This document shows, one piece after another, positions 16,015 through 42,800 of a stretch of DNA of 64,000 nt. The notes beneath the pieces were generated by a model that ran no database searches, was not told where the DNA came from, and saw only the letters and a program-made list of their open reading frames with translations. The stretch's first letter is position 1. Every line of letters begins with the position of its first letter. Source of the DNA: Patescibacteria group bacterium (GTDB lineage: Bacteria; Patescibacteriota; Dojkabacteria; J137); contig BOLA01000001.1 in NCBI GenBank assembly GCA_016861265.1, positions 852,136-916,135 of the forward strand. The letters are read 5' to 3'. The position numbers were made by a program, and so were the translations under genes.

Positions 16015-16028
16015 AGAAAATCCAGTGT

Positions 16029-21726: not shown

Positions 21727-21738
21727 AAAGAAACAGTC

Positions 21739-25811: not shown

Positions 25812-25904
25812 CTGATGAACGAAGTGATGAAACTATGGTGAAACTGCTAATCCGAAAAAATGACTATTTTACGATCTTTAAAAACCTACCAAAGCGAGAG
25901 CCAC

Positions 25905-26165
25905 TAAACCTTACTAACTCCGAACGGGAGTGATTGGGTGCCCTCCTATCGGAGCCCACCCAATCACTCCCTCGACAAAGTTACACGTTGTGTTGTTTGT
26001 CGTCTGAGTTAGTAAGGTTTAGTAGGGTAGGTAGTAGGTAGTTAGTAATAGTAAGTTAGGTAGGATAGATAGAGAAGAATAAAGAAGAGAGATTGAGAAG
26101 ATAGAGATTTTAGGTAGGTTAGTTTTTAAGTATTTGTTGAGATTTATTATTTTTTAATTTTTTTA
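25905..26165. repeat. nested inverted repeats plus C-free purine-rich repeat tract (candidate ori, oriT or att region)
   Basis: The 18-bp inverted repeat ACTAAACCTTACTAACTC...GAGTTAGTAAGGTTTAGT encloses a perfect 15-bp hairpin GGGAGTGATTGGGTG-(16 nt)-CACCCAATCACTCCC (about 25926..25971) and the 7-bp CGACAAA...TTTGTCG. About 150 nt follow with almost no C on the + strand, containing TAGGTAG-like and GAGA/AAGA repeats. Confidence 0.6.
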
Positions 26166-26170
26166 TATAA

Positions 26171-27148
26171 ATGATTGGTTCAAATATTTTAAAAAGTTCT
26201 GATGTGGAAATTTTGTATACAGTGAGTATTTTTAAGTTTATTCCGCTTAAAGTTTTGGCTGATATTTTGATTGCTAAGAATATTTATAGTTTTTATCAAG
26301 GAGTTGCCAGAAGTATTACAAGACTCGAAAAACAGGGGTTGTTAAGAACTAAATACTATGCAAATCATTCAAAAATCATATTTTTATCAAAGACAGGTGC
26401 AGGAGTTTTATCAGTGAATAAAGGTATTCCACTAGAAAACATTAACTGTCCTGACCGAATTACTAATGTAAATTTCTTTGCCATTGAACATACAATTGAA
26501 GTGTCTAAATTGTTTTACATATTTTCTACTGAGTGCGAAAGATATGGATTTAAGCTAGTAGAATTCCAAGGAGATGCTTATCAAAGATACATATATTCTT
26601 TTAAGGAATGGATTAACAATGACCAAAAGAAAATAACTAAATATGTAATTCCAGATGCTTTTGTAAGAATTGATGTTGGAGATGAAAAGATTTATGAATT
26701 TTATGTTGAATATGATAAAGGTTCTGAATATTCAAAAGATATTGCAGAAAAATATCAAAAGTATTTTGAATACTATTCCCTTTCAGAAAAGTACAAGCTT
26801 AATAACGATGATAAGTTTCCATCTGTTTTATTCATAACGACAACTAAGAAAAGAATATTGAACCTTATTCCTGATATGCCTAAAAAGGATGGGAATAGAT
26901 ATGAGCTATACGGAAACAGAGGCTTAAGGAATGTAGTATTTCAAGGAATTGAAAACGCAAAGGGAGATACGAATCACGATAGTTACAGAATTCACAAGTT
27001 TTTGAAAGATGAAAACAAGTTTCTGTTCATTGAGTACGAAAGCCTATTAAAGAATAAGTTTGAAGCTACTTGGTTAAACTTTATTCAACAGCCAATTTCC
27101 TTACATTACTTTTTAACAAATCCATTTATTGAACCTAAATCTTATTGA
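26171..27148 (+). CDS. replication-relaxation-family-like protein (tentative)
   Basis: It has an N-terminal wHTH-like region (ILYTVSIFKFIPLKVLADIL...ITRLEKQGLL), as in the PF13814-type plasmid proteins. Confidence 0.35.
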   Translation: MIGSNILKSSDVEILYTVSIFKFIPLKVLADILIAKNIYSFYQGVARSITRLEKQGLLRTKYYANHSKIIFLSKTGAGVLSVNKGIPLENINCPDRITNVNFFAIEHTIEVSKLFYIFSTECERYGFKLVEFQGDAYQRYIYSFKEWINNDQKKITKYVIPDAFVRIDVGDEKIYEFYVEYDKGSEYSKDIAEKYQKYFEYYSLSEKYKLNNDDKFPSVLFITTTKKRILNLIPDMPKKDGNRYELYGNRGLRNVVFQGIENAKGDTNHDSYRIHKFLKDENKFLFIEYESLLKNKFEATWLNFIQQPISLHYFLTNPFIEPKSY

Positions 27149-27407
27149 TGAAAATCTAAAGTTTATAAATCAATTTGATATTGATTCTAAAGAAATTTCT
27201 GCTGAAAGAGCCAGAGAAATCTTGGGTTCAAAGGCTGACGGCTTGAATGATGATGAATTACAGGTTGTTATAAATATGGTGATGACTATGGCTGAAATAG
27301 CTGTCGGAGATTTTTTTAATAAAAAAGTACCAGAAGATGAAAAGAAGTTATATAATTTAACTGCAAATCAATCAAAAAGGGTAAAACGAAAGAAAACTAG
27401 ACTTTAG
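27129..27407 (+). CDS. small hypothetical protein
   Basis: A 92-aa ORF overlapping the upstream stop. Confidence 0.3.
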   Translation: MNLNLIDENLKFINQFDIDSKEISAERAREILGSKADGLNDDELQVVINMVMTMAEIAVGDFFNKKVPEDEKKLYNLTANQSKRVKRKKTRL

Positions 27408-27509
27408 TCTGTTATCTTTACAGATAAGGGGCTACTTGGAACAGTCTTTACCCAAAGATTGATTTGCACCAGGTAGTCCCTTTTCTGTTTAGTTTTTACT
27501 ATTTAAAAT

Positions 27510-29084
27510 ATGAACAAACCAAAAGCAGTCATTTACACTAGAGTTTCATCAGATAGACAGATTGATAATACAAGTCTTGCCGATCAATTAAAAAAAGGTA
27601 AAGAGTATTGTGAGCGAAGAGGCTTAGAATTCGTTACAGAATTTAGAGAAGAAGGAGAATCAGCAGAACTAGCAGATAGAACAATTTTGAAAGAAGCATT
27701 GAATTATTGTGGCTTAAAGAAAAATGATATTACATATTTTCTAGTATTTAAGTTCGATAGATTCTCTCGTTCTGTTGAAAACCACCACCTAATTAAAGCT
27801 ATATTAAGCCGTAGTGGAGTTAAATTGATCTCAATGACAGAAGAGACACCTGACACTCCGGCAGGAAGATTAACAGAAAATATGCTTGCAACAATAGCCC
27901 AGTTTGATAACGAAGTCCGAACTGAAAGATGTATTAATGGGATTAAAGCAAAATTAAGACAAGGTATTTGGGTTTATGATTCTCCACTTGGATATATGAA
28001 AGATACAAACTTTAAAGGTAGTGGTGCTAAACCAGATATTCCAGATCCAGCAAAGTTTGAAATTGTAAAAGAAGGATGGAAAATGATGCTAACTGGAAGA
28101 TATAGGTCAAAAGATGTTTTAGAGTTTTTTCATAAAAAGGGATTAAGAAATAGGTATGGGAATAAATTAATTGCACAATCTGTTTCAAAGATTTTTTACA
28201 ATAAGTTCTATGCAGGATTATTGTTTGTTGATAGTTTTGGAATTGAAGAAAAAGGACAGCACCAACCAATGATTACGCTAGATGAATTCTATGCAGTTCA
28301 AGCAATTTTGGCTAAATACAATAATGGAAATCAAGTTAAGCATTTAGGTTACAATCCAGAATTTCCACTGAATAAAACAATTAAGTGTACTTGTTGTGGG
28401 AAATTTATGACTGGTGCTTGGTCTAAACAAAAAGGAGTATTTGGATATTACGCGTGCAGAAGACCCGAATGTAAGGAAAGAGATAAAATCAAGAAAGCTG
28501 ATGCAGAGACTTCATTTATTGAGCTATTGGAGAGAATTACTCCATCTCAAGAATTAGTAGATTTATACAAGGAAGCAGTTACCAAAGTATATTTGAAAAA
28601 ACTTCGAGAGAAAGAAGATATACAAAGGCATATTAAAAGTGAACTAAATGAGCTTGAGGTTAGATTATCTAAACTTGAAGAGCTTGTTGAAACAGATGTC
28701 TATTCTGTTGAAAAGTTTAAAGAAAAGTCTAAACCACTTGTACATGAGATTGCAGTTAAGAAAGTATCACTTTCTGAAACAAACATTGATTTATATGATG
28801 CGGAGGAATGTGTTAATTACTCCGTAAATTTTTTACAACTTTTACCTAAATATTGGATATCTCTGTCTGTAAAGGCAAAACATAGATTGCATGAGGTACT
28901 TTTCCCCGAAGGTCTAATTCTCGAAAATGGAAGAGTTACAACCAAGGCATTAGCCCAGTTCTATAATGATATTGAAGCAATTTCAGATGGTAATGTCCCA
29001 TCTGGTACACCCGGAGGGAGTCGAACCCCCAACCTTCGGTTCCGAAGACCGCTGCTCTATCCATTGAGCTACGGGTGCGCATAA
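27510..29084 (+). CDS. large serine recombinase/integrase
   Basis: It has an N-terminal resolvase domain with the catalytic Ser (AVIYTRVSSDRQ), a recombinase domain and a zinc ribbon (CTCCGKF...YYACRRPEC), followed by a coiled coil. The 3' end reads through tRNA-Arg. Confidence 0.8.
   Translation: MNKPKAVIYTRVSSDRQIDNTSLADQLKKGKEYCERRGLEFVTEFREEGESAELADRTILKEALNYCGLKKNDITYFLVFKFDRFSRSVENHHLIKAILSRSGVKLISMTEETPDTPAGRLTENMLATIAQFDNEVRTERCINGIKAKLRQGIWVYDSPLGYMKDTNFKGSGAKPDIPDPAKFEIVKEGWKMMLTGRYRSKDVLEFFHKKGLRNRYGNKLIAQSVSKIFYNKFYAGLLFVDSFGIEEKGQHQPMITLDEFYAVQAILAKYNNGNQVKHLGYNPEFPLNKTIKCTCCGKFMTGAWSKQKGVFGYYACRRPECKERDKIKKADAETSFIELLERITPSQELVDLYKEAVTKVYLKKLREKEDIQRHIKSELNELEVRLSKLEELVETDVYSVEKFKEKSKPLVHEIAVKKVSLSETNIDLYDAEECVNYSVNFLQLLPKYWISLSVKAKHRLHEVLFPEGLILENGRVTTKALAQFYNDIEAISDGNVPSGTPGGSRTPNLRFRRPLLYPLSYGCA
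29004..29078 (-). tRNA. tRNA-Arg (anticodon UCG) with encoded CCA
   Basis: It folds manually as acceptor GCACCCG/CGGGTGT, U8A9, D-arm GCTC-AATGGATA-GAGC, anticodon arm GCGGT-CTTCGGA-ACCGA and T-arm GGGGG-TTCGACT-CCCTC, then A-CCA. Confidence 0.75.
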
Positions 29085-29119
29085 AAATTTTAGCACTTAA
29101 GCGTGATCTTGGATAATAC

Positions 29120-29932
29120 TTAAATTCGAGTTGCACTTATAATTAATCGTCCTCTACCTGTATCAACCTTGCCTGTAGTCACTATCTTTAGACTTTTGCT
29201 GTCTGCACTTATATTATTATAAATATTATCGTAATTGCCGTTTAGGTATTCCTGCTTCGTAATTTTATAGGTGGATTTTTCGCCATTAAATTCTAATTTT
29301 ATTTCGTCGTTAATTTCTAGAAGATTTAAGAAATAGCAGCTTCTTGGATCTGTGTTATCAAAGAATCTTCTTGTACATAAAAATACTAGTTCTCCCTGAT
29401 TGTAGCTGTAAGATGATTTGTGCATCCAAAACCCAAACTTTAATGCCATTGAACTTTTAGGAGATATATATGCCGGTGAGTTAATCCCAAGTTCTTCTAT
29501 GTTTATTACAAAGTTCTTATTAGATTCCTCGGTAATCCTTACAGGGCCTAGCTCAGAATCGGAATAAATTTCTTCAAAAAAGTTAGTTGATCCAGCAACA
29601 AAAGAATCGTCCTTTTCCGGAATAAAAAAACTATAATTTAAATTCATATCGGCAACGGCTTGCTGTTCAACAGTAAGCTCAACTGATGACTTCTCTACTC
29701 CCTCCAATGGTTCAACAACTGCAACAGGAGTATCTCTTCTGACAGGTATTTCAAAGTTATAGTCTAATCTGTTAATTCTTACAATATTAGAGATTTCGGC
29801 AACCGCGATATCTACTCCAGGTTGAATTATCTTCCAAATAATATTACCTATGGCTACTAATGCAATTATTGATACTGCAAAGATTACCAAAATCATAACT
29901 AGTATATTTTTATCGTCTTTATTTGTGTACAT
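29120..29932 (-). CDS. hypothetical membrane-anchored extracytoplasmic protein
   Basis: It has an N-terminal TM (ILVMILVIFAVSIIALVAIG). No secure family was recognised; a weak sortase-like impression is unconfirmed. Confidence 0.4.
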   Translation of the reverse strand: MYTNKDDKNILVMILVIFAVSIIALVAIGNIIWKIIQPGVDIAVAEISNIVRINRLDYNFEIPVRRDTPVAVVEPLEGVEKSSVELTVEQQAVADMNLNYSFFIPEKDDSFVAGSTNFFEEIYSDSELGPVRITEESNKNFVINIEELGINSPAYISPKSSMALKFGFWMHKSSYSYNQGELVFLCTRRFFDNTDPRSCYFLNLLEINDEIKLEFNGEKSTYKITKQEYLNGNYDNIYNNISADSKSLKIVTTGKVDTGRGRLIISATRI

Positions 29933-30031
29933 TTAGCTAGTCAAATTAATGTCTTTTATATAAAATGTAAATCGAAGTAATTATAGCATAATAGCCCTGC
30001 TGTTTTAAATATTGGGTATATATCAATAATT

Positions 30032-30550
30032 ATGTTTCTTATTAAAAAATATAGAATAGCCTTATTAGTAACCTTAGTAGTTGGTGCAATTATAGGTGGA
30101 ATAGTTATATTCTCCAACCAACCAACTATAGCTCTGTACAAATTCAATTCCGGATTAACATTGAATTTTGATTTGAATAAGTGGAGATTAATACCTAATT
30201 CTACTAACGGAGATATAATTGAAAGCCAAAACAAAGACGTTTCAATTTTTCTTACTGCTGCAGAACTAGAAGACAAATCTAAAGCATTAGATAATATTGT
30301 AACGGATAGAGTATCTGCATTAAATAAACAGAACATATCGGTTACAACTACCCAAATAGAAATTAATGATTTACCTTTTTATAAAATCGAATATACAGAT
30401 ACCGGGGATGAGAATATAAAACCAGAAGAAGCAGGTGTGGGCTTTGTAACCTTGTATAATGGAACATATACTACCATTCAAATTTATTACAAAACAAATT
30501 CAGATATTACGGAGGCGCTAGATATTGTTTCGAGTGTTAAAGCTAATTAG
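30032..30550 (+). CDS. hypothetical membrane-anchored protein
   Basis: A 172-aa ORF with an N-terminal TM. Confidence 0.4.
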   Translation: MFLIKKYRIALLVTLVVGAIIGGIVIFSNQPTIALYKFNSGLTLNFDLNKWRLIPNSTNGDIIESQNKDVSIFLTAAELEDKSKALDNIVTDRVSALNKQNISVTTTQIEINDLPFYKIEYTDTGDENIKPEEAGVGFVTLYNGTYTTIQIYYKTNSDITEALDIVSSVKAN

Positions 30551-32618
30551 TACTAATAAGCTTTAAGGTATTTTCTGAAGGTATACTTGTAAAAATAATC
30601 TGCTGTGGTTTCAATCCATGTACAAACTTTACTAAATCATCTGAATAGTTATTTAGTCTAATAATCAGCTCAAGGTTTTTTTCCTTTGCTAACGCTTTGA
30701 GCAACTGCAATGTCTTTACACCAATTTCGTGATCAACATCTCGAATCTCACTTCTGAAAGTAAGAGCCTTAAGCAATTTTGAATAGTTAACAACAATTCC
30801 GTCTATTCTATTTTTTTCAATTCTATCGAGTTCAAATATAAAGGAAGGAATTGCAACTTCTGCATAAATTCTAAAATTGCCTGTCCTCTTTAATCCATTT
30901 ATAGTAAATACTTTTTCTATGTCCTCTAAGTTGCTTAGATTTCGGACAGCTGGAATACATACATTAATATTTCTGCTGTTATGTGTAATTCTAGATTTTT
31001 TTATTGCGGCAACCTCTAGTCCTAAGCTTTCCGGGTAGTCAATAAATCTTTCATCAAGGTTGTACTTGTATTTATTTTCTTTTACTCCTAATAGTGTCAA
31101 TTCCGCCGATGAAATTGACGACAGCTGATAAATCATTGGCTTATGAATTGCACATCTAGCAGCGGTGGATAAGTCTAGAGAATATTTTTCCAACAAGTTA
31201 ATTAATACTTTTTGGTTTGTAGAATATTCTTCAGGGAGAATATTATTATTTAAAATCATTTCGGTTCCGTCAAAGAAGCTTCCGCTAAAATACTGTAATG
31301 CACTTAAGTGTTTTGAATTCATTTTTGAAATATCCAAAAACACACCGGAATCAAAAAAGAAATCGTCTATATATTTTATTCTTGCATCTTCAGGTTCCTT
31401 ATCCTTTTTTAGCTCTGGGAAGTTCATTTCTCGTTCTTTTATAGGTTCTTCTACTTCAGGTATTACCTCTATTATTGGTTCATCTTCCTTCCCGTCGACT
31501 ATATCAAAGACTTCCTCTGCAAGCTTTTCTATGTCCGGCTCTTTATTTTTTGTTTGCTTCTCTTCTTTTTTCTCCGGTTTTTTCTCAGCAACTTTTACTT
31601 CCCTTTTTCGTTCTACAGTAGGTAGTTCCAATGGGTCTAATGCTAGTATATATATTTCCCCGGCTTCTATTCCCCATTTTACGCTTACATCTTGTTTAAA
31701 AAGTAACTCAATTTTTCTTGTAACTTTGGAAATATATACAATTGTCTCGTCATCTAATTTAGGATTCTTTTTCCAATTAGAAGATAATTCCACTTTTATG
31801 AATTTTTGTTTATCGGTTTTTTTTAATTCGTGAATATACATATGGTCTTGAGGAACAATATGGCTATTCACAATCGCAAATGTTTTATTATCTACCACAT
31901 AACTATCGCTGAACTCTTCAAAATTTTCATTCTCAATTCCATAAACAGCTCGTACTTGAATTTCGTTTTTGCTGAATACTGTGGCACTGTTAGCAATTCC
32001 AGAAACTTCTGCACGAATTAACTTTTGAATAATTAATCCTACACTAATTTCTCCCTTGTAATAACCATTTGCTCTGAATTCAATTGCCTCCTCACTAAAT
32101 AATTGAGCCCAAGAAGCTTTTATTTGATGTATTAAATCATCCTGTCCCTGTAATAGTATCTCTCCGGTATTTAGCCTGGTTGGAGGAACAAACTTTTCTT
32201 CAATAATATTCGAAGTGATGATTGTTACTATCGGGTTTTCGTTATTCTGACTTAGTTTTTTATATGCAAATTCAAGATCCTTTTGCAGCTTTTCCGGAAG
32301 TTTTGCTTCCATTATCAATTTTTTTATAGAAGCCGATGCTTCCTTCGCTGATTGTTTAATGAATGGTCTAACTTTTTTTAATTCTTTTGCAATAGGTGAA
32401 ACTAAATTGTTACTAACCAAAAATTCATCAAAGGCAACAGTGGAAATAATAAATGACGAAGGTATAGGAATATTTTCCTTTACTAGAAAAGCCAAATCAA
32501 TCGCTTCTCTTCCCGAAAGTTCAAAATCTCTTTCTCTTAAATTTTTTGGAATAAGAATAAATTCCGGAATTTTGTTGGCCATAGTTATCAATTCATTATG
32601 AAAGTTTAAAAAACCCAT
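30543..32618 (-). CDS. PEP-utilising-enzyme-like protein: a PPDK/PEP-synthase N-terminal nucleotide-binding domain and a C-terminal PEP-utiliser barrel-like domain joined by a Lys/Glu-rich linker
   Basis: The N-terminal segment GREAIDLAFLVKENIPIPSSFIISTVAFDEF resembles PPDK_N. The C-terminal RIDGIVVNYSKLLKAL region resembles the PEP-utiliser catalytic region. A low-complexity KE-rich linker of about 90 aa lies between them. Confidence 0.4.
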   Translation of the reverse strand: MGFLNFHNELITMANKIPEFILIPKNLRERDFELSGREAIDLAFLVKENIPIPSSFIISTVAFDEFLVSNNLVSPIAKELKKVRPFIKQSAKEASASIKKLIMEAKLPEKLQKDLEFAYKKLSQNNENPIVTIITSNIIEEKFVPPTRLNTGEILLQGQDDLIHQIKASWAQLFSEEAIEFRANGYYKGEISVGLIIQKLIRAEVSGIANSATVFSKNEIQVRAVYGIENENFEEFSDSYVVDNKTFAIVNSHIVPQDHMYIHELKKTDKQKFIKVELSSNWKKNPKLDDETIVYISKVTRKIELLFKQDVSVKWGIEAGEIYILALDPLELPTVERKREVKVAEKKPEKKEEKQTKNKEPDIEKLAEEVFDIVDGKEDEPIIEVIPEVEEPIKEREMNFPELKKDKEPEDARIKYIDDFFFDSGVFLDISKMNSKHLSALQYFSGSFFDGTEMILNNNILPEEYSTNQKVLINLLEKYSLDLSTAARCAIHKPMIYQLSSISSAELTLLGVKENKYKYNLDERFIDYPESLGLEVAAIKKSRITHNSRNINVCIPAVRNLSNLEDIEKVFTINGLKRTGNFRIYAEVAIPSFIFELDRIEKNRIDGIVVNYSKLLKALTFRSEIRDVDHEIGVKTLQLLKALAKEKNLELIIRLNNYSDDLVKFVHGLKPQQIIFTSIPSENTLKLISTN

Positions 32619-32685
32619 GTCAATGATTTTCTATTTTGTTTAAACTAAGTTTAGAGATTGTGATATATTTTGCTGCCGGTTTGTG

Positions 32686-32715
32686 TTGACGATATGCGAT
32701 ATTGTGATATATAAT
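32686..32715 (+). promoter_or_regulatory. sigma70-like promoter (TTGACG-18-TATAAT) for the island B gene 1
   Basis: SD AGAGGAG follows, 8 nt before the ATG at 32762. Confidence 0.45.
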
Positions 32716-32761
32716 AATTATATCTATTGGCAATGCGAATGCATTCAGAGGAGTTTTTAAA

Positions 32762-33070
32762 ATGGCTGTTACACAGCAACAATCAGATACGGTGAGGGTC
32801 AGTGGAATCTCTTGGCTTGAGCGGACATGGTACATGTTGCTTGCACTCATCCGCTCCACTGCCGTTCTGATTTTCGCCATCGGGATTCTTTTAATCGGAG
32901 TTGCGCTTATCTCGGAAAGCAATGTCCGGGTAATCGCCCAAACTGATGAGGAAGGCTGCATCACCTCGGTGTATGCGACCAACCACCCGATGAACGACCA
33001 ATGGGTCGTCCGTATCTGGGGTGATAAACCCGCAGACGATGGCAAGCCCGATCCGCACTTCTGCCACTAG
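32762..33070 (+). CDS. small TM-anchored protein encoded by GC-rich island B
   Basis: A 102-aa, GC-rich ORF with a central TM (LIFAIGILLIGVALI). Its own terminator hairpin lies at about 33076..33100. Confidence 0.45.
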   Translation: MAVTQQQSDTVRVSGISWLERTWYMLLALIRSTAVLIFAIGILLIGVALISESNVRVIAQTDEEGCITSVYATNHPMNDQWVVRIWGDKPADDGKPDPHFCH

Positions 33071-33075
33071 CACAA

Positions 33076-33100
33076 AGGGGGTACTGCTAACAGCACCCCC
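33076..33100 (+). terminator. terminator hairpin after the island B gene 1
   Basis: GGGGGTaCTG-ctaa-CAGcACCCCC. Confidence 0.4.
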
Positions 33101-33176
33101 CAAACTTTTCCAATTTCAATTCTGTATATACTGTTTATATATGTTATAATATATTCAGCACTAAGGAGGTGCACGA

Positions 33177-33482
33177 ATGTTAAAAAAGCTCTTAGTAGTT
33201 ACCCTATTGGCTGTGTTGCTCGGAGTGTTTCCAGTAGCAGCGCAGGAAGACGATTCGCAGGTCAGCGAGTTTACCGTCTACTTGCCTCCATTCTCCGTAG
33301 AATTCTTCTACGCGGACTGGCTGGCTGACGACACTACTTGCCAGTTCTGGGGAACGTCGTTCGGTCTCATGCGTGAGATTGGCGAGCAAATGCCGAAAGC
33401 CTACCGCTTAAATGTGGTGTACGGCGGATGTGGCGTGTTGCGAACGTCAATCTTCACCTACGATGCCAATAGCGAGAAATAA
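33177..33482 (+). CDS. small secreted protein (signal peptide) encoded by GC-rich island B
   Basis: A 101-aa ORF with signal peptide MLKKLLVVTLLAVLLGVFPVAAQ. Upstream are TATAAT at about 33145 and SD AAGGAGG. It is GC-rich. Confidence 0.5.
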   Translation: MLKKLLVVTLLAVLLGVFPVAAQEDDSQVSEFTVYLPPFSVEFFYADWLADDTTCQFWGTSFGLMREIGEQMPKAYRLNVVYGGCGVLRTSIFTYDANSEK

Positions 33483-33505
33483 CTACCCTCCGTAACGTGT
33501 CCGCA

Positions 33506-33530
33506 GGCTTCGGGAGTAACTCCCGAAGCC
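33506..33530. terminator. bidirectional terminator hairpin
   Basis: GGCTTCGGGAG-taa-CTCCCGAAGCC lies between island B and the clpC stop. Confidence 0.55.
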
Positions 33531-33540
33531 TTAAGTTTGC

Positions 33541-36006
33541 CTAGGCAATTGAGAATTTTTTCCCCTTATAAACAATTCTTACTTTCTGTCCTGACTTTAT
33601 TTTATCGTCAAGAATTAAACTAGAAAGTAAATTATCGATTTCACTTTGGACAGCCCTTTTTATTGGTCTAGCACCATATTGAGGATTGTAGCTGATATCC
33701 GCAATTTCATTCACAACACTTTCGTCGAATTCAACTTCAATATTTTGCGACCTCATTAGGGTTTTTGTATTATCTAGAATTAGCCTTACAATTTCGTTAA
33801 CTTCTTGCCTTGTAAGAGCTTTAAATACAATAATTTCATCAAGTCGATTTAAGAACTCCGGTCTAAAAAATTTTCTTAAGAGTTGAAATATGCCGGCTCT
33901 AACTTCGTCCCATGATGGAGTATCTTCGGAATTATCCTTTAATTTTATTAAGCCTTCGTGGCTTTCCTTGGGTCTGGTAACCTTACTTTGCTCATTTAAC
34001 CCAATTGAAGTTAGTATTAAATCACTTCCTATATTGCTTGTTGCAATAATTATCGTATTTTTAAAGTCTACTACTCTACCTTTCCCGTCTGTTAATTTCC
34101 CGTCGTCCAAGACTTGTAGCAGAATATTAAATACATCTGGATGTGCCTTTTCGAGCTCGTCTAGAAGTATTACAGAATAAGGTTTACGTCGTACTTTTTC
34201 GGTGAGTTGTCCGCCTTCTTCGTAGCCTACATAACCTGGAGGGGCTCCAATTAAACGTGTTACGGAGAATTTTTCCATATATTCACTCATATCAATTCTT
34301 ATGAGTGCATCTTCGTCCCCAAATACAATCTCAGATAAAGCTTTGGCTAGCTCAGTTTTTCCAACTCCAGTTGGTCCTAGAAATAGAAAACTGGCGATAG
34401 GTCTTCTGGGATCTTTTAATCCAGTTCTAGATCTCCTAATTGCCTGGGCAACTAAATGCACGGCCTCATGCTGGCCAATAACTCTTTCGTGCAATTTCTG
34501 CTCAAGATTCTTTAAACTTTCCTTTTCCGCCTTATTTAATTCAGTAATAGGAATACCAGTCATTCTACTTATAATCTCGTGAATGTCTGAAACAGTAACT
34601 TCTGGAGTTCCTGTGCCTCTTTGTTTTAACCAGTCTTCTTCAATAGGCTTGAGTTCTTCTTTAAGTTGTTCAATTTTCACTTTTATTTCGGCAGCTTCTT
34701 TGTGTTGAGAGGCTCTAGTTAAAGACTCTCTTTCCGTTTCAAGTTTCTTGATTTCATCTTTGAGTGTTCTAAGTTCTTTTGGTTCGCTAGTAAATTTTAT
34801 TCTTACTCTGCTTGCAGCTTCGTCCACAATGTCTATTGCCTTGTCGGGTAAAAAACGGTTTTTTATATATCTATCCGATAGATTTGCTGCAGCTACTAAA
34901 GCTTCTTCTTGTATTTTTAATTTGTGATGAGCTTCGTATCTTTCTTTTATTCCCTTCAAAATTAATACAGTTTGATCCACACTTGGCTCATTTACTAATA
35001 CGGGCTGAAATCTTCTTTCTAATGCCGCATCTTTTTCTATATATTTTTGATATTCATTTAGTGTAGTTGCACCAATTACTTGTAATTCGCCCCTTGCAAG
35101 AGCGGGTTTAATCATATTACTAAAGTCTAGTTCTCCGCTCTGAGCTCCGCTTCCAACAATTGTATGCAATTCGTCAATAAACAGAATTACGTTTCGTTCT
35201 ACTTTCTCTAGGTCATCAATTAATTTTTTAACTCTTTCTTCGAATTCGCCTCTAAATTTTGAACCTGCAACTAGCTTACTTAAATCTAGTGCACGTACGG
35301 TTTTGTTGCGTAAAACTTCGGGAACCTGATCTAAGACTATTTTTTGTGCTAGTCCTTCTGCTATTGCAGTTTTTCCTACTCCGGGTTCACCAATTAGCAC
35401 TGGGTTATTCTTTTTTCTTCGGGATAAAATTTCAATTACCCTAGTTATTTCATCTTCTCTGCCGATGACGGGATCAATTTTATCTTGTCTAGCAAGCTCA
35501 TTAAGATCTTTTGAAAATTCGTTAAGAGTAGGTGTATCTAGACCATTTCCCACTTTGTTACCTTCTTTATCACCTTCGCCAACAACTTTTATAACCGCTT
35601 GCCTTGCTTGAACATGATTAATGGCATATTTTCTAAGAATTTGCGCAGCCAAACCTTCCTGTTCAAGAATTAATCCTAGGAAAATATGTTCTGTTCCAAT
35701 GTAATTATGTCTTAGTTCAATGGATTCATTGTTTGCTAGTTGTAGTACCTGATAGGCTCTAGGAGTAAAGTTTGGAGTTTCCATAGAGAAGCTTCCTTGA
35801 GGGATTTGCTTATCAAGGTATTCTCTTAATTCATTTACGTTAACGCCTAGTTCCTTAAATACCCTCTTCATCACAACTTCGTCTTCGGTAATGCCATAAA
35901 GTATATGTTCAGTATCTATAGCTCTTTGCCCTTTCTGTTGGGCAACTTCAAATGCTTTTTGAAGTGCTTCTTGTGTTCTTTTTGAAAATTGATCTGGTAA
36001 ATTCAT
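33541..36006 (-). CDS. clpC: Clp/Hsp100 AAA+ chaperone (ClpC/ClpB family), ATP-binding subunit
   Basis: It has Clp_N repeats and two AAA modules ([14 protein letters not shown]; [18 protein letters not shown]), with a short middle domain. At 821 aa it is called ClpC-type rather than ClpB. Confidence 0.85.
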
Positions 36007-36155: not shown

Positions 36156-36881
36156 ATGAGTTCTGCAGTGTATCCTGACGACAACCTAGAGCCAGATTTT
36201 CTTGATCAATTGGACGAAGAATCTGCACAGCCAAATGCAGTTAATCAGGATGCAAATCCTACATCATTTGCTGCAGGCAGAAAACTTTTAAGAGATTCTG
36301 TTTACAAGGGTGCTAATTTAGAAATCAGAAGAAAGGCCATTATTGCTAACATTGCTAAGTCCAAATATAGTCAATATAGCGAACAGAGATCTCTAAGAAT
36401 GGCTGCATCTGAGTATGATCAGATGGTTCAATTAGCATATGCAAAAATAAGAGGAGAAATGCCGGATTTAGATGCTGCTCAAGCAAGACTGCTGGCTGAA
36501 CAGGAGGTCTTAAAGGCCCAAGGTACATTGAAAACAAATGCACAAGCCCTAGCCTCTAAAGGAGGAAAGTTAGCAAAAAAAGGATTTAAAAAAGGAGTTA
36601 AATATGTAGGTAATATTTTATTACCGGGACTTGGTTCCGTATTGCACTTCTTTATTTTCAATAAAATTGGGAGAATAATCATTGTCTTAATTTGTTTATG
36701 CTGTTTCTTTTTAATTATAGAGGTATGGCAGACTTTTGCATCGGAAGATAAATGGAACTCTATTAGAGAATCAGCTAACTTAGTAAGCTGTGCTGGAGGT
36801 ACCGATAACGATAAGCTAGCTAAATGTTTATTTGATCAGAAAATTGAAGAGTATTCGCTTCAAGAACCAACACCTGAATAA
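36156..36881 (+). CDS. hypothetical membrane protein
   Basis: A 241-aa ORF with a C-terminal TM segment, lying 3 nt upstream of the giant hydrolase gene. Confidence 0.4.
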   Translation: MSSAVYPDDNLEPDFLDQLDEESAQPNAVNQDANPTSFAAGRKLLRDSVYKGANLEIRRKAIIANIAKSKYSQYSEQRSLRMAASEYDQMVQLAYAKIRGEMPDLDAAQARLLAEQEVLKAQGTLKTNAQALASKGGKLAKKGFKKGVKYVGNILLPGLGSVLHFFIFNKIGRIIIVLICLCCFFLIIEVWQTFASEDKWNSIRESANLVSCAGGTDNDKLAKCLFDQKIEEYSLQEPTPE

Positions 36882-36884
36882 AAC

Positions 36885-39800
36885 ATGGGAGACAAATTTT
36901 TGAATTTAAAAAATGAACTAAAGAATAAATTAATTGAAAGATTACCAATAATATTTATTGTAATAATTTCAATACTATTCACCTACTCCTTCATTAAGGA
37001 GAGTATTACGGTAAATATACAAACAGGAGCAGCTATTCCCAACTCTATAGTCAATTCTATTGTAGTGGCATTAGATAGTACAGTTAATCCAAATGGAATA
37101 ATTGCCGCAGCAGTAGATATTTCTGAAAAGGTACAAAACGGAGAGGGAATAATTGTAAAAGATGTATTCGATAGGTGTGTAATTCAAAGTGATAACAGAG
37201 TCAGCGATGGATTTTACCAGCCATTCGATACAAAAGCCGGTGTAAACAATGGTGATCCTATTGGAGATGGTAATGGTGGCGACGAAATTAGAAAATATTT
37301 AAGATACGACAACAGATCTTCGTTGGATTTAGAAGCAAGTCAAAACGTTGTAATTTTAATGAAAGGAACAGGACCAACTGTTCTGGCATCGGCAATTAGG
37401 AATATAAACGAAAAAGGAATGATACCTATAATCAGATTAGGTGTAATTGACATGGGAGATTATCCGTTTCAACTAACTGAAGATGCAAGTGAAATGGTTA
37501 ACTACTTTACACAAGTAGGTGATGAATTAATGCGTGAAAATAAAGGTTGGAAGGCCGTATTATCTTTAGGGCCTAATGAACCTACTACAGGAGGTGCTGG
37601 AGAAGGTAATATTCAGGTTATGGGTATTCCTGATTACCAGACAATGGTACAAAGAGAAAATCAGGCTGCTGATCAGTTACAAAAATACAGAGTTGTTAAT
37701 GGTGGTCCATTCTGGCTTGCACCTGCCATCTTTAATGGAACGGCATCTTATCAGGCAAATGGAAGAGAATATTCTCAAGATGTATATAGGCACTTGTATA
37801 TTGATGGAGAAGATACGAGTACAGAAAAAGACTACTGGAAAAGAAAAAGCATTGACCCAGACCTATTCGACGTGATGCTTGCAAACATATACATGAATGT
37901 GGCAAAACCTGCATATAACTTTTATAAGGAATTTGGGTTAAAAGAATATGTAGATAAAAGACCTGGATTAGTAACAATCGTTACAGAATTTGGAATAGAT
38001 CCATTCTCACCATCTTTAGTTACTGCTGATTTGAAACCTGACTTTAAGGCGTTCTACGAGGATCCTAAGGTAGAAGGAATAAATTGGTTTAGAGCACTTA
38101 AAGATAAGCCAGCCCCAGCCCCTGCTCCTTCACCAGAGCAAAGTGCTACCCTTGAGGACTTTATTAAATTCTTGGAACAATCCGGGAAGACGGCTAAAAA
38201 AATATCTCTAAAGAACTTTTCTTGGGTTAATTGCGCTTTGGGTACAACAATAGAACGAACTTCTACATCTTCAAGTGGTTCCAGCAGCGGAACTTTAAAT
38301 CCAACAACAAAGGGTGGTTTAAATGAAGGAGAGAACGCACCAGGCGGTGGTGCAACAATGGATACAGCTAAATCTTATGGGTTGGCAGGCTATAGTTTAG
38401 CAATTATAAACAATCCAGGCGACAGTGCTGCAGCAATTCAATTCATTAGCGAGTCAATTTCTAAAGGCTTCACACCGATTATACGTTTATGCGTAAACGT
38501 ATCTGGTTCATGTGGGTTTAATCTTTCCGGAGGCAGAGCCGATGATTTAGTGAGCTTTTATAATGCTGTATCACAAGGTGCATCTGGTAGCTTTATTGGA
38601 ATTGTGGGACCTAATGAACCTAGCACCGAATGGGGTGTATTTAATGCCTCGAGTATGGACGAAGTAAAAAGAGCTGCCGTTACAGCAGCAAAAACAATAA
38701 ACAAGAATGGAAAGATGCTGATTGGTACCCCAGCATTTAATCTCCAAACTCAGGATTTAACACAATTCAAAAGTGCATTTGGCGAAGCTAAGTTCGATGT
38801 TTTAATCGGCAATGCCTACAATATTGGAACAGCAAAAGCGGATGAAATTGCGGGCGAAGCCATCTCAACTTCTAAAGCAAACGGACTAAAATTTATTTTG
38901 ACGGAAACCGGTGCTATAAAAGGTGCTGCAGAAGATTTTGAAACTACAATCGGAAGATTATGTTCCCAAGTAGATGGATTCATGTTATTTAGATCTCAGG
39001 AAAGTTCTCCGGGGGGGAATTATGAGAATGTACCCCAGCCATTCGGGCCTGAAAAACTAAAGGCAATTGCTGCTGCATGCAATGGTAGCAACCCAACTTC
39101 CAGTAACGATAGTAATTCTACCGATAGCCGAGATGATTCATCAAATTCTGCTATTCAATGTACATCCGGGGTGGCAGATGACCAGATCATATTCCTAGGT
39201 GACAGTCTAACTAACGAACTTGTAGCAAAACAGTTTCCTGGCTCAAAAAATTTAGGATTTCCAGGAGCCAGCACTGAATGGTTAGTACCTGGATCCGAAC
39301 CAGCCAACGATAAGTCCGATCAATTAAATACGACTTTAAACGATCCAAAGTATAAAGCAATTGTAATTGAATTTGGAACGAACGACTGCGGAGGAGTAGA
39401 TGTAGGTAGGTTTAAACAAAATTTAACAACAATTATTAATAATATTAAGAATGTTAATGCTGAAGTAGACATTATCTTGAGTACAATACCGAGAGCGCAT
39501 AAAGCATGTTCAGCAAGTACAATAGACAGTTTTAATGCAGCTATTAACGAAGTTCGTTCATCTACAGGAGTTTTAGGCAGGGAACTTGGAGGTTCATTAT
39601 TCGATGAATCTGACTTAAGATCAGGTGACGACAGACACTTAACCGACGAAGCTTATGCTGAAATTGCACAAATAACCAAGGAGGCATTAGGCGGAGTTTG
39701 CGTAGGATCTAATACAGGAACAACTACAGAAACTACATTAGGTGCAGGATCTCTTGCACTTAGTTGTGGTGTTGAAGAAGACAAACCTGCTGAATTCTAC

Positions 39801-42800
39801 CAAGGCAAGAATGCCGCAGCATTAAGAGTTAGGTGTGCAGGAGGATCATGTACAACAAAAATGGTGGGAACAATCGAGATCGAAGCACCAACAAAATTAT
39901 TCTCTACAAATACTCCAAATGGGACCATGAGATTAAGATACGTACCGGTTTCTCAAGTTGCAGCAAGTCAATCAAAAACTGATGGCTACGACGGACTAAA
40001 TATGTTTGCCGGAGAAATAAAAATTGGTTCCGACAGTTATCCTCTACCGGGTTTGGGTAGTGCAATTAATTCAGCTACAGAGATATTAGAGGAAACAATG
40101 ACGTCGGGTGATCCTAAGAGATTCTCCACTCCAAGCGGACAATCATTATTAAAATGGACAAGAAATAAACTTGAAATACAGAGTCAACAGGGAAAAACAA
40201 TCGGTGTTGTTGGCGAGAAGAATGTAGGAGGGTTCACCACGAATGCATTCTCTATACAGGAAAAAGAAGGAAATAGCCTAGAGTCTATAAATGAAAGAGC
40301 TGTTACTTACGATGGCTTAACATTTAATAACGATGCTGGTTTAGCTGATTGGAGGAAAAACTTAATGCCTTATGACCCTTCAATTGCATTCCCAACCTAT
40401 ATTGCACCTAAAGCTTGTCAGCAAAGTGAAATGAAATTTATTAATAATTTAGATAATTACGTTACTGGTCCTGAATTAGTGGTAGAGGAAGAAAAAACTG
40501 TTACTACAAATACAACTCAGCAAATCTGTTGGATGTATGCCGGAAGAAGTATTCCAGGAAGAACTCCATATATGTCTGGTGACGGTGTTAAGACTTGCGG
40601 TTATATTTTTGATACAAGAATATTCTCAGATGCAAATATAGATGCAATTTCACCAAGAAAGGGTAAGCCGTTACATAGAATCTACGAGACTGTATATAAC
40701 GAACTATTGGGTACTTATGTAACAACAAGTCGAATTGAAGAAGGCAATTGGACTTGTCAGGAATTATTTACCGGGCAGGCAAATGGTACAGACGGTGTGG
40801 ACGAAGATGCAGAATTCAAGAATGTTGAAGCACCTAAGGTATTACCAAATTGTGACTTCGACGATTATTATTTTGAATTATATAAAGGTAAACTATCAGA
40901 TGCACCAGGCAATCCTGCTAGAAGCGGTAGATGCGATATTCCTGCGGATCTAGTTTCCTGCTTAAGATACGATGCTCAGGATTCAGACGAGGTCTATATT
41001 CATACCGAAAAATACCCAATAGCAAGTAAAGTTAAAATTCCAAAAATCTACTCTGCTCTTTACGGCCTTTACGATAGATTACAAACAATGATGAGTAACC
41101 GAAACATGAAGATGGTATTCAGGGAAAATATTGGAATGAAATTCAAGGTAAACTCAAAAATTCGAGACGCAAACGAATCCATTAGTGCAGTTCAATATGA
41201 CTTCTCAACACAGTACGATAATTATTATCAACCTGAATTAATTGATAATACTTTACCTTTGGCATCAAACAATCCTACAAAGACTCAATTTCAATATTTT
41301 GATGATCTAGGTTACCTGGATATTTTGCAGGAATATACTGTAGCCTATGCTAATGAACAAGCAATAATAGGAGATCATGTAATGGATAATCCTTTTGTAG
41401 AAAAAGGAATCTTTAACCCACTACAGGATAGAACAAAAATTGTTGCAGGAGGAGAATCTAATTTAAGTCTAGCAAATCCAATACTAACCTGCGATCAAGT
41501 CGAGATCTGTAAAAACTATACGTATACTGAACTTGAAACAACTTTCGGACCAACAATGGCGCTTAGGCTTTGTCCATTAACCGAAAAACTACCGGTTGAT
41601 GCTAAGAAGAACTGTATAACAAATATTTCAGATGATAGATTTATTGATAGGTTGAATACAACGCTATGTGCTAGAGGTTTTAATGTAGACGAAAACTGTC
41701 ATTTTCAATGTTCAGTTTCAGGTCAAGGTGGTAATAACAGTGGTGGTAATGGTACAACACCCGTAATTATTAATGGTACATATTCAACGCTATTTCCTGT
41801 AAGTAAATCTAGACAAATTCCAAACTGTACTGAACCTGCAAGTGTTCAAGTTGTAAATACTGATAGACCTGTACAAAACGATGAAGGTATGACCAGCATT
41901 AGTCTAATACCTGTTGCCAAGCAGGCGCTAGAACAGATGATGGCCGCTATGAAACAAAACGATCCTTCTACCTACGCAAAATGCGGATTTGCATATGGCT
42001 ACAGAAGTGCCGAAATGCAGGGTACGTACACTTGTGGATCCGGTACGGCATGTAAGTGTCACAGTGAACATCAACTAGGTACTACTGTAGACTTTAGAAA
42101 TGCCGAAGATATGTCTGCCGCAAATAAGTTTAACGGTTCAGCATGTAGTAATTGGCTAAGGTCTAATGCTGCTAATTACGGATTTATTCAGTCTTATACT
42201 GGTGCAGATCCAGATTACGTTGCAGAATCGTGGCACTACAGATACATTGGAATAGAAGAAGCTCAGAAATTCAAGGCACAAAGTCAATATACATACTTAA
42301 GAGCCTATCTTGAAAGTATACAATCGGGAGGTAACTCTTCAGGGAATGGTAATACATCAAATATTCCAGGAGACTTTAAAGTAAGATATCCTACGGAGTT
42401 CGATACCTTAACCGGAAATTACGGAACTAAGGGAGGTTATGCAACCCATACTGGTGTAGATATAAGAGTTTCGGGGGTTGGAGGAACTATATTCGCTGCA
42501 GAATCCGGTACGGTTCTTTATGCTGGACCAGATAACGAAAATAATGCTAACTATACATGCGTAACCGATTCTAATAGCAATAAATATAGTCCATTATGTC
42601 AACAATTAGGTCTAAGTAATATTGGTGCATACGGATTCATGGTAAAAATACTACATCCAAATGGTAAGGTAACCCTATATGCCCATAATTCCGATTTAAA
42701 GGTAAAGACTGGAGATTGTGTTAATAAAGGGGATTTAATTGCACTAGCAGGCAGTGTTGGTAATTCTACTGGCCCACATAGTCACTTTGAAATTAGAAAG

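Follow-up and report, generated by a model that had tools for sequence, protein, structure and literature searches.

Layout and inheritance of the locus

The window, by which is meant the whole 64-kb stretch of DNA that was analysed, carries two small genes, B1 and B2, arranged in tandem between a gene encoding a PPDK_N-domain protein and clpC. The two genes and their signals make up island B. The features of the locus are as follows.

30543-32618, minus strand: left flank, PPDK_N-domain (PEP-utiliser-like) gene; Pfam PF01326 on the orthologue; native composition, GC3 0.26
32686-32715, plus strand: B1 promoter, TTGACG (-35), 18-nt spacer, TATAAT (-10); 11 of 12 consensus positions; region of 22% GC
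32749-32753, plus strand: B1 Shine-Dalgarno AGGAG, 8 nt 5' of the ATG; AAGGAG is the equivalent at the orthologous locus L008
32762-33070, plus strand: B1 gene, ORF of 102 aa; GC3 0.62; predicted signal-anchor
33077-33100, plus strand: terminator-like hairpin 3' of B1, then CAAACUUUUCC; dG -14.9 kcal/mol, z = -2.35
33142-33150, plus strand: B2 promoter, extended -10 TGtTATAAT, within a spacer of 18% GC; identical in the L005 lineage
33163-33169, plus strand: B2 Shine-Dalgarno AAGGAGG, 7 nt 5' of the ATG; TAAGGAG is conserved in L008
33177-33482, plus strand: B2 gene, ORF of 101 aa; GC3 0.63; predicted Sec-type signal peptide
33505-33531, no strand assigned: GC-rich hairpin with a perfect stem of 12-13 bp, where B2 and clpC converge; z = -3.5 (plus) and -3.3 (minus)
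33541-36006, minus strand: right flank, clpC, 821 aa; Clp_N, AAA and AAA_2 on the orthologue; native composition, GC3 0.25

The initial annotation described two mini-genes with a promoter, a ribosome-binding site, and a 3' hairpin apiece, forming a GC-rich island wedged between a PEP-utiliser-like gene and clpC. This picture has been corroborated. All of the elements are where they were placed, the flanking genes are as described, and GC content is 51-58% across 32756-33575 compared with 34.5% for the genome. The true start of the PPDK_N-like gene is probably the ATG at 32582 (MANKIPEF); the orthologues in L006, L007, and L008 begin with the same residues. An antisense ORF at 32620-33045 was rejected as a real gene, since the frame it occupies with respect to the sense gene is not kept in L007 and L008.

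The number of promoter-like matches here does not exceed that in shuffled sequences (5 found against 3.1 +/- 1.9 expected). Support for the promoters comes from their conservation. The -35 hexamer of B1 and the GTGATATATAAT block are identical in L006/L008, a lineage of only 75% nucleotide identity overall, and L008 carries TATATATGTTAATAT at the position of the B2 promoter. The proposed terminators are a mixed case. Stable and conserved hairpins do lie at 33077-33100 and 33505-33531, but the tails that follow them are short on U (CAAACUUUUCC and UUAAGUUUG, respectively) and a consensus terminator scan called neither. The 3' hairpins of both genes are preserved through compensating changes. 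The one after B1 is retained with different pairs in the L005 lineage (dG -15.4), and a hairpin of different sequence (GGGAACAC...GUGUUCCC) occupies this position in L008. The stem at 33505-33531 is conserved in L005 with an altered loop and in L007/L008 with one added compensating U-A pair. Its dG is -25.4 kcal/mol on the plus strand and -26.9 on the minus strand, and it might terminate transcription from either side.

It is clear that the B1-B2 pair is vertically inherited at one fixed locus, because its neighbours are the same in all three Saccharibacteria lineages that carry it (the window and L001; L002-5; L006-8 and L010). The distribution is not patchy. Every related contig that spans the PPDK_N-clpC site, in all three lineages, has island B there, and no empty site was found in the clade, which is what was sampled. 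A metagenome scan for an empty site, made with the PPDK_N-like alignment, returned one 22%-identical locus (L009) that is useless for this purpose. The genome-scan contig L006, which belongs to the same lineage as L008, stops 12 nt past the B1 promoter and so does not cover the island itself. An apparent loss of ORF1 in L012-L014 was rejected; the gene is uncalled in these, yet they have an intact ORF that does not differ from that of the window. A chimeric assembly was raised as a possible artefact from the outset. However, island B occurs in at least 12 independent assemblies (Logan, ENA, JGI, and NCBI), including a 1.11-Mb NCBI contig, which excludes that explanation.

Coding status and export of the two proteins

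B1 and B2 are real protein-coding genes, because dN/dS is approximately 0.12 and substitutions are in excess at third codon positions. For B1, dN/dS is 0.116 and the differences by codon position are 6/3/22 (22 of 31 at the third position). For B2 the corresponding values are 0.128 and 5/3/17 (17 of 25). Both proteins evolve several times faster than neighbouring genes but are still under purifying selection, and their length, signal peptide or TM segment, and Cys positions are preserved at approximately 50% identity. L007, L008, and L010 carry orthologues of B1 (111-112 aa, approximately 50% identical) at this locus. The sole homologues of B2 are P0001 (approximately 91% identical) and P0003 (43-51%, varying with the alignment), the latter likewise being 101 aa long with a signal peptide and Cys positions as in B2.

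Both products are most likely extracytoplasmic, with B1 anchored and B2 cleaved. This agrees with the initial annotation, which had a membrane-anchored protein of 102 aa and a secreted, two-Cys protein of 101 aa. The calls are rule-based (Kyte-Doolittle profiles, charge distribution, and the -3/-1 rule) and do not come from trained predictors. B1 is predicted to consist of a short N-terminal cytoplasmic tail, one TM helix (approximately residues 24-51), and an acidic ectodomain of 52 aa that contains Cys66 and Cys101. Its maximum Kyte-Doolittle value over 19 residues is 2.74, at residues 33-51. R12, R21, and R31 precede the hydrophobic core, and E52, D62, E63, and E64 come after it. One helix of approximately 20 residues, no cleavage motif and positive charge on the N-side are what a single-pass signal-anchor is expected to have, and the B1 sequence has all three. 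AlphaFold places a helix at residues 18-52 (pLDDT 79-89). The ectodomain is the best conserved part of B1. A role as the target of a diversity-generating retroelement was rejected on account of this conservation and the lack of a template repeat.

The N-terminus of B2 reads MLKKLLVVTLLAVLLGVFPVAA followed by QEDD. Its predicted signal peptide is residues 1-22, ending in V-A-A before Q, and it has the parts of a Sec type I signal peptide in order: a positively charged n-region (MLKK), a hydrophobic h-region (LLVVTLLAVLLGVF), and a c-region whose residues at -3 and -1 are small (PVAA before the Q). The Kyte-Doolittle mean over 19 residues is 2.41 at residues 5-23. P0003 keeps this layout despite its diverged sequence (K2, ITLLLIVAALALGVGL, and QVVA before Q). 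The lipobox of a type II signal peptide (L-[AS]-[GA]-C) is absent from B2, which has no Cys before residue 55. Mature B2 would be an acidic protein of 79 aa (pI 4.13) with Cys55 and Cys85. In both proteins the two Cys presumably form a disulfide.

Do these proteins belong to a known family? Searches of Pfam, PHROGs, NCBIfam, and PADLOC with B1, B2, and the five other mini-genes of the window returned only noise (E >= 0.03), and a PDB sequence search with family profiles gave no meaningful match to B1 or B2. No homologues of either were found outside the clade in collections of 5.8 and 1.84 billion proteins. A HMMER search with mature B2 did return TPR and repeat proteins (P0004-6), which were discarded as repeat artefacts. 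Structure prediction had been proposed as a check on both proteins. AlphaFold2 models were obtained, but from two-sequence alignments and with low confidence (pLDDT 53.9 for B2 and 61.6 for B1), and fold comparison with them is uninformative; a Foldseek search of the PDB with the low-confidence B2 model (pLDDT 53.9) found nothing at E <= 0.001. Judged by their sequences, B1 and B2 are lineage-restricted orphans of no described family.

Base composition and RNA folding

In 200-nt windows, GC is 0.525-0.565 within 32800-33099 and 0.53-0.54 within 33200-33499, against a mean of 0.345 for the 64-kb window. By segment, the promoters of island B have 18-22% GC, the CDSs 51-53%, and the 3' hairpins 57-60%. 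In other words, raised GC is limited to the transcribed CDS and 3' hairpin. GC3 is 0.62 in B1 and 0.63 in B2, compared with 0.26 in the PPDK_N-like gene, 0.25 in clpC, and 0.19-0.30 in the ordinary genes of the window (with one exception at 0.36). GC1 and GC2 are also elevated relative to the neighbouring genes. Over the lineages, island GC3 spans 0.51-0.66 where that of the flanks spans 0.16-0.27, and GC at four-fold sites is 0.50-0.77 and 0.13-0.25, respectively. Four-fold differences at the deepest split are saturated, with p = 0.57-0.73 in the flanks (JC d >= 1.08) and 0.64-0.83 in the island. The GC-richness of island B is actively maintained, and has been over a very long time at a fixed locus.

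Island B is not alone in its composition. The window has at least four such islands with at least seven such mini-genes. Those outside island B are listed here.

5322-5663, plus strand: island A, mini-gene of 113 aa with two transmembrane segments; GC3 0.59; CDS folding z = -2.4; promoter TTGACA-17-TATAAT at 5262-5290; hairpin at 5680-5711
50413-51010, minus strand: island D, mini-genes of 90 aa and 73 aa with a hairpin after each; GC3 0.48 and 0.41; folding z = -7.3 and -3.8
55805-56134, minus strand: island C gene 1 (C1), signal-peptide protein of 109 aa with two Cys; own promoter, AAGGAG, and hairpin; GC3 0.58; folding z = -2.4 and -3.1
56294-56683, minus strand: island C gene 2 (C2), 129 aa, N-terminally anchored; own promoter and hairpin; GC3 0.66; folding z = -4.0 and -4.3

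C1 is the counterpart of B2, without sequence homology to it. C2 has an architecture like that of B1, with two Cys in its predicted exported part. A further GC-rich element, without an ORF, lies at 52690-53020; its folding z is -9.5.

Folding of the CDSs was compared with that of dinucleotide shuffles. The seven mini-genes of the window (GC3 0.41-0.66) have z values from -2.1 to -7.3, with a mean of -3.75, and the orthologue CDSs have values from -3.0 to -7.4. Control values are -0.29 +/- 1.18 for 23 native-gene segments (Mann-Whitney p = 1.5e-5 against the mini-genes) and -0.81 +/- 1.18 for 30 E. coli CDS segments at 53% GC (p = 6e-6). Shuffling of synonymous codons agrees on the excess (p = 1.3e-4). 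The self-complementarity of the mini-gene RNA exceeds what is predicted by composition, dinucleotides, protein sequence, and codon usage. Reverse complements of the CDSs also over-fold (z = -0.5 to -5.9). In B1 either strand may therefore be the one under selection, and the excess may have a DNA-level or antisense-RNA cause. Compensatory pairs number 13 of 73, a circular count in that the structure came from the same alignment, with three distinct lineages. In Rfam 15, only two tRNAs reach the gathering score in the window, and nothing matches at E <= 1 in 32600-33600.

Explanations for the GC-rich mini-genes

On balance, the probable explanation is that B1 and B2 are lineage-specific exported small proteins with GC-rich, highly structured mRNAs that are kept by selection, as two independent units. 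B1 would be a single-pass (N-in, C-out) membrane protein displaying a two-Cys ectodomain of approximately 50 aa, and B2 a Sec-secreted, acidic two-Cys protein of approximately 79 aa. Both would be orphans, inherited vertically between the PPDK_N-like gene and clpC in a human-gut Saccharibacteria genome, and we infer a role for them at the cell surface or in host-bacterium contact. Because raised GC is confined to the CDS and hairpin, persists at four-fold sites and comes with excess folding, the most likely cause of the composition is selection at the mRNA level that favours a transcript rich in GC and strongly folded. The excess mRNA folding is a second, independent signal pointing to selection on synonymous sites. 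What might such a transcript gain? Perhaps it is long-lived. Alternatively, slow translation might give a message of approximately 100 codons time for co-translational export.

Small Sec-secreted or signal-anchored proteins of monoderms (below approximately 100 aa) offer a close parallel. B1 and B2 are like them in size, in the exported Cys pair and in being monocistronic with their own promoter and hairpin. B2 shares the n-h-c signal peptide and V-A-A cleavage, and B1 the single N-terminal TM anchor. Unlike these proteins, B1 and B2 have no described family, a codon composition opposite to that of the host, and excess structure in the CDS.

Compositionally odd ORFans are usually dismissed as recent horizontal transfer, and the term "island" in the initial annotation carried that meaning. 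According to this explanation, the locus would be recently acquired foreign DNA from an organism of approximately 50-55% GC, not yet ameliorated. Island B does resemble acquired genomic islets in having atypical base composition and codon usage (GC3 0.62-0.63 against 0.25-0.27 in the neighbours, with GC1 and GC2 raised too), in encoding orphan proteins and in lying between housekeeping genes. However, the default fails a direct test here, because approximately 60% GC3 is held across saturated divergence in a genome of approximately 25% GC3. Lineages that have diverged to saturation at four-fold sites (JC d >= 1.08) carry both genes in the same place, yet four-fold GC is 0.50-0.77 and island GC3 is still 0.51-0.66, which excludes an un-ameliorated recent transfer. 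Even an ancestor of 100% GC3 is calculated to have fallen below approximately 0.5 under the mutation regime of the flanks, an argument that presupposes the same regime in the island. Nor are there signatures of mobility or of a donor. No integrase, tRNA, or flanking direct repeats were found at the borders, a blastn search with the island gave no match in collections of phage and plasmid DNA, and no donor homologue is among the 5.8 or 1.84 billion proteins. The island's internal promoters are rich in AT and look native, and genes from a genome of 53% GC have no folding excess. A recent foreign origin is largely refuted and must be considered highly improbable. What if the composition was instead produced by a recombination hotspot with GC-biased gene conversion, in which frequent exchange of alleles at surface-protein genes lifts GC at every site, and no selection on RNA at all? 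Strains that are otherwise approximately 99.8% identical have 20 differences clustered at 32500-33000, the promoter and B1 N-terminus exist in two circulating haplotypes, and four-fold divergence between L007 and L008 is 0.33 in B1 but 0.10 in the flanking gene. Nevertheless, conversion acts on tracts, whereas GC falls to 18-22% in the inner promoters and rises exactly at each CDS. Composition alone cannot explain folding beyond dinucleotide and synonymous shuffles, and B2 has no synonymous excess (0.12 against 0.44 in clpC). Gene conversion is an unlikely cause.

Other explanations concern the products. A toxin/immunity or bacteriocin-like fold was suggested at the start; B2 would be a secreted toxin or bacteriocin, B1 its membrane immunity protein, and island C a second pair. 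Saccharibacteria live attached to other bacteria, and fast protein evolution relative to the neighbours would suit this role. As in Sec-dependent class II bacteriocin/immunity pairs, a small secreted Cys protein adjoins a small membrane protein, and the arrangement recurs in island C. However, no bacteriocin, toxin, or immunity family was matched in Pfam, NCBIfam, PHROGs, or PADLOC, nor was there a match in the PDB. Mature B2 is acidic (pI 4.1) where the class II peptides are cationic. The membrane gene comes first instead of being a co-transcribed downstream immunity gene, and a conserved hairpin and a second promoter divide the two into separate transcription units. There are no adjoining transporter, processing, or regulatory genes, and an ectodomain that is the most conserved part of B1 would be unusual in a simple immunity protein. 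The suggestion has no support and is quite unlikely. Alternatively, the primary products might be structured non-coding or dual-function RNAs, with the ORFs secondary or incidental. GC-rich islands reportedly mark structural RNA genes in AT-rich genomes, and island B has the same sharp GC peak and unusually stable predicted fold. The strong folding excess in 7 of 7 mini-genes and in orthologues, together with the ORF-less element at 52690-53020 (z = -9.5), would fit. Yet a purely non-coding reading is excluded by three-periodic substitutions, dN/dS of approximately 0.12 and protein features kept at 50% identity. Unlike structural RNAs, the B1 and B2 transcripts are translated, with selection at the protein level, and nothing in Rfam matches even at E <= 1. 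RNA as the primary product is very unlikely, although a dual function (RNA and protein) for these transcripts is possible. Type I toxin-antitoxin and dual-function sRNA loci (hok/sok, tisB/istR, RNAIII/hld, SR1/SR1P) similarly combine small membrane-active or exported peptides with stable, structured, independently transcribed RNAs. Unlike type I toxins, which are hydrophobic peptides of less than 60 aa, B1 and B2 have 101-102 aa and sizeable soluble exported domains. No antisense RNA gene, conserved antisense promoter, or Rfam match was found at island B. An antisense promoter-like site at 32739-32711 is weak (9/12). It lies 5' of the B1 CDS, overlapping B1's promoter and 5' UTR, and is directed away from the CDS.

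The explanation based on exported proteins with selected mRNAs might extend beyond island B. It is conceivable, if rather doubtful, that this clade of Saccharibacteria has a genome-wide class of autonomously transcribed, hyper-structured GC-rich mini-genes in which the RNA fold is functional and selection opposes AT drift, and which provide anchored and secreted orphan pairs at the host-bacterium interface. The fold might then make the mRNA extremely long-lived in an ultra-small, ribosome-poor cell, programme slow translation for the export of proteins of approximately 100 aa, or have a second regulatory or exported-RNA function. No description of GC-rich mini-genes in Saccharibacteria was found in the literature, and a paper on clade G6 mentions low GC only. 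As far as could be found, a class of protein-coding "GC islands" is undescribed. If the class is genome-wide, a GC peak combined with a folding z-score would be a simple finder of exported small proteins in uncultured Patescibacteria. It would also be a clear natural case of strong selection on bacterial mRNA structure or composition, and would single out a short list of surface and secreted proteins as candidates in the interaction between epibiont and host, which is poorly understood.

Relationships between the mini-genes were also considered. Paralogy was rejected for B1 with B2, for B2 with C1, and from island to island, the one exception being that C1 and C2 have a weak similarity to each other (E = 0.002 in a database of seven sequences).

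Layout and conservation of island B

Island B is a GC-rich segment that carries two tandem mini-genes, B1 and B2. The promoter, Shine-Dalgarno sequence and hairpin that the initial annotation had assigned to each of them were all found, as was the location of the pair between a PEP-utiliser-like gene, which encodes a PPDK_N domain, and clpC.

Features of island B and its flanks (window coordinates)
30543-32618, - strand: PPDK_N-domain gene (flank)
32686-32715, + strand: B1 promoter TTGACG-18-TATAAT, 11/12 consensus positions
32749-32753, + strand: B1 ribosome-binding site AGGAG
32762-33070, + strand: B1 ORF, 102 aa, in the GC peak
33077-33100, + strand: hairpin 3' of B1, dG -14.9 kcal/mol
33142-33150, + strand: B2 extended -10, TGtTATAAT
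33163-33169, + strand: B2 ribosome-binding site AAGGAGG
33177-33482, + strand: B2 ORF, 101 aa, in the GC peak
33505-33531, both strands fold: perfect hairpin of 12-13 bp
33541-36006, - strand: clpC (flank)

GC content tracks these transcription units closely. It reaches 56-59% in 150-nt windows within 32756-33575, compared with a window mean of 34.5%. By segment it is 18-22% in the promoters, 51-53% in the CDSs and 57-60% in the 3' hairpins. Promoter-like matches number 5 where 3.1 +/- 1.9 are expected, a count that by itself is not above chance. The island B promoters are instead supported because they are conserved between lineages.

Relatives are few. Word-indexed searches of 5.8 billion proteins matched B1 and B2 to nothing beyond their own 90% clusters. 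With mature B2 as query, a full HMMER search of 1.84 billion representative proteins yielded one further true homologue (P0003; 101 aa, 49% identity), and a B1 profile search added P0007 and P0008 (111-112 aa, ~50% identity). The contigs bearing these homologues (L007, L008, and L010) represent the same locus as the window. The pair is again flanked by the PPDK_N-like gene (81-84% amino acid identity) and clpC (78%). In the interval, the homologue of B1 is followed by a hairpin and an AT-rich promoter, and that of B2 by the terminal hairpin seen in the window. L006, a GTDB genome contig of the same lineage as L008, ends 12 nt past the B1 promoter. Conservation extends to the -35 hexamer and the GTGATATATAAT block, to the ribosome-binding site of each gene and the Cys pair of each product, to the terminal hairpin stem and to a juxtamembrane motif (W-[LF]-E-R-x-W-Y-M). 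At the position of the hairpin after B1, a different hairpin substitutes in the relatives.

The initial annotation had named a chimeric assembly as something that would refute its reading. This is excluded because island B is present in independent assemblies and runs from Logan, ENA and NCBI. An identical B2 protein is encoded on 7 Logan contigs, which come from different runs, and on an NCBI contig of 1,114,243 bp. A lineage with 91% nucleotide identity was recovered from one Logan run and from three human-gut assemblies in ENA, of which one carries the label Hadza/Nepal. Judged by sequence comparison, B1 and B2 are protein-coding. Comparison of the window with the 91% lineage gives a dN/dS of 0.116 for B1 and 0.128 for B2 (0.027 for the flanking clpC), with differences at codon positions 1/2/3 of 6/3/22 and 5/3/17, respectively. 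In the window, B1 and a long antisense ORF (32620-33045) have their wobble positions in common. The relative frame of this ORF differs in L007 and L008, and therefore it is not the conserved reading frame.

The start of the PPDK_N-like ORF (ATG 32618, -) is probably wrong; its orthologues in L006, L007, L008, and L010 begin MANKIPEF, which corresponds to ATG 32582. With that start, a TTGACA-17-CATAAT match at 32623-32595 would make the mRNA almost leaderless. Strain variation is concentrated at 32500-33000, with 20 differences from the related contig L001 compared with 0-3 in each 250 nt over the span 29000-35000. For the B1 promoter and the first 22 codons the strains fall into two haplotypes, that of the window and that of L001/L016/L017; B2 is identical across both. 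Metagenomic contigs of the clade repeatedly end within island B or at its border (the ends of L006 and L010, the starts of L002-L004 and L015), possibly through a drop in coverage of the GC-rich segment or through these haplotypes.

Predicted products, composition and RNA folding

Export of both products is predicted from hydropathy, charge and cleavage motif, and these rule-based features agree with the earlier reading of B1 as membrane-anchored and B2 as secreted with two Cys. The B2 N-terminus (MLKK-LLVVTLLAVLLGVF-PVAA, followed across the cleavage site by QEDD) is by these rules a canonical Sec signal peptide without a lipobox. Mature B2 would comprise ~79 aa and be acidic (pI 4.1), with Cys55 and Cys85. 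B1 has one hydrophobic helix, with a 19-residue Kyte-Doolittle mean of 2.74 at residues 33-51; AlphaFold places a helix at residues 18-52. Arg lies N-terminal of the helix and acidic residues follow it, and therefore an N-in, C-out topology is predicted, with a 52-aa acidic ectodomain containing Cys66 and Cys101. The AlphaFold models are of low confidence (pLDDT 53.9 for B2 and 61.6 for B1). A Foldseek search of the PDB with the B2 model, too uncertain to be informative about fold, returned nothing at E <= 0.001. No relationship was found between B1 and B2.

GC3 is 0.62 in B1 and 0.63 in B2, whereas ordinary window genes fall almost all at 0.19-0.30, with one at 0.36. C3 and G3 are both elevated, so this is not a simple preference for NNC codons. 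Orthologues have a GC3 of 0.51-0.66, compared with 0.16-0.21 in their flanks. Four-fold-site differences between the window and L007/L008 (p = 0.57-0.73 in the flanks, JC d >= 1.08; p = 0.64-0.83 in island B) indicate that both are saturated. Despite this, four-fold GC is 0.50-0.77 in island B and 0.13-0.25 in the flanks. Assuming an equilibrium near 0.2 and flanks ~88% of the way toward saturation, an insert under neutral decay would by this time have fallen below ~0.5 even from an initial 100% GC3. The sequence data thus indicate a composition that is maintained rather than left over.

The transcripts also fold more strongly than expected. Compared with dinucleotide shuffles, the putative mRNAs have z = -3.0 (B1) and -4.85 (B2). 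For CDSs alone, z is -2.1 to -7.3 (mean -3.75) in the window's seven GC-enriched mini-genes (GC3 0.41-0.66) and -3.0 to -7.4 in B1/B2 orthologues, compared with -0.29 +/- 1.18 in 23 native-gene segments (Mann-Whitney p = 1.5e-5) and -0.81 +/- 1.18 in 30 E. coli K-12 CDS segments of 53% GC (p = 6e-6). With synonymous-codon shuffles, which keep protein and codon usage, the mini-genes remain at -1.5 to -5.6 and controls at -0.32 +/- 1.42 (p = 1.3e-4). Reverse complements likewise over-fold, and the sense strand is consistently stronger for B2 only. An RNAalifold consensus for B2 has compensatory changes in 13 of 73 pairs (5.7 +/- 1.8 in shuffles), which is only suggestive because there are three distinct sequences and the structure derives from the same alignment.

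A mini-gene class and its interpretation

Island B is one member of a class. Five further mini-genes in islands A, C, and D each have a promoter-like site and a 3' hairpin, and all show excess CDS folding.

Other GC-enriched islands (window coordinates)
5322-5663, + strand: island A, perfect TTGACA-17-TATAAT promoter, 113-aa two-transmembrane protein, hairpin
50413-51010, - strand: island D, two mini-genes (50413-50634, 50738-51010)
55805-56683, - strand: island C, two genes (55805-56134, 56294-56683)

Island C repeats the island B layout exactly: promoter, anchored 129-aa protein, hairpin, second promoter, 109-aa signal-peptide protein and hairpin. The pairing of a membrane-anchored with a secreted protein thus recurs, and each of the four proteins has exactly two Cys in its predicted exported part. 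No sequence homology was detectable between islands A-D.

The best-supported account treats B1 and B2 as small, lineage-specific proteins that are exported and whose transcripts are selected to be GC-rich and strongly folded. The fold might prolong mRNA life. Alternatively, it might slow translation of a short message and so favor co-translational export, or serve a second RNA-level role. A surface or host-contact function would be plausible for an epibiont. As small exported proteins, B1 and B2 are new members of a broad, already known kind; no description of maintained reverse composition with hyper-structured coding regions was found in the literature searched.

What else might explain these properties? 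GC-biased conversion at a recombination hotspot would fit the strain variation at 32500-33000, but it explains neither the AT-rich promoters within island B nor the folding excess, and is unlikely. A toxin/immunity or bacteriocin pair, in line with the folds that the initial annotation proposed searching for, is less likely still. Pfam, PHROG, NCBIfam, PADLOC, PDB, and Rfam held no family match for island B, so family searches lend it no positive evidence. B2 is moreover acidic. A role played mainly at the RNA level would accord with the folding, but its non-coding-only version is excluded, and what is left of it ranks lower again. Recent horizontal transfer is the least probable of these. It is rejected as the cause of the GC-richness because saturated sites stay GC-rich, the borders lack mobility genes, tRNA and repeats, and no donor was found in the protein searches (5.8 and 1.84 billion) or in phage/plasmid DNA.

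Other features of the window

Adjoining island A, a gene for a 98-aa membrane protein (4807-5103, +) may belong to the mini-gene class as an intermediate form. Its GC3 is only slightly raised (0.36), and its CDS too folds in excess (z = -2.7 relative to synonymous shuffles). Between a gene at 52135-52644 (-) and lepA, the segment 52690-53020 is a candidate structured non-coding RNA. It is ~50% GC, with no ORF >= 60 aa and no Rfam match, and folds into at least 7 hairpins in a row, with more to ~53330 (- strand MFE -148.4 kcal/mol, z = -9.5; + strand z = -6.4).

The ~14.8 kb at ~14200-29000 is probably an integrative mobile element. It is inserted between tRNA-Lys (14047-14119) and tRNA-Arg (29003-29078), two genes separated by 118 nt in L001, a near-identical strain. 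Its products include a large serine recombinase (27510-29084) and a Replic_Relax protein (26171-27148). Also encoded are three paralogues of the TrpRS/TyrRS family (19466-22935), an aldo-keto reductase and a family-3 glycosyltransferase. Finally, 36156-44306 encodes a 241-aa protein and a 2473-aa secreted protein with GDSL lipase, VanY and M23 peptidase domains. This region diverges by ~5% from L001, compared with ~0.2% in the preceding 7 kb, and the larger product appears to be a giant, hypervariable surface protein that acts on the cell wall.
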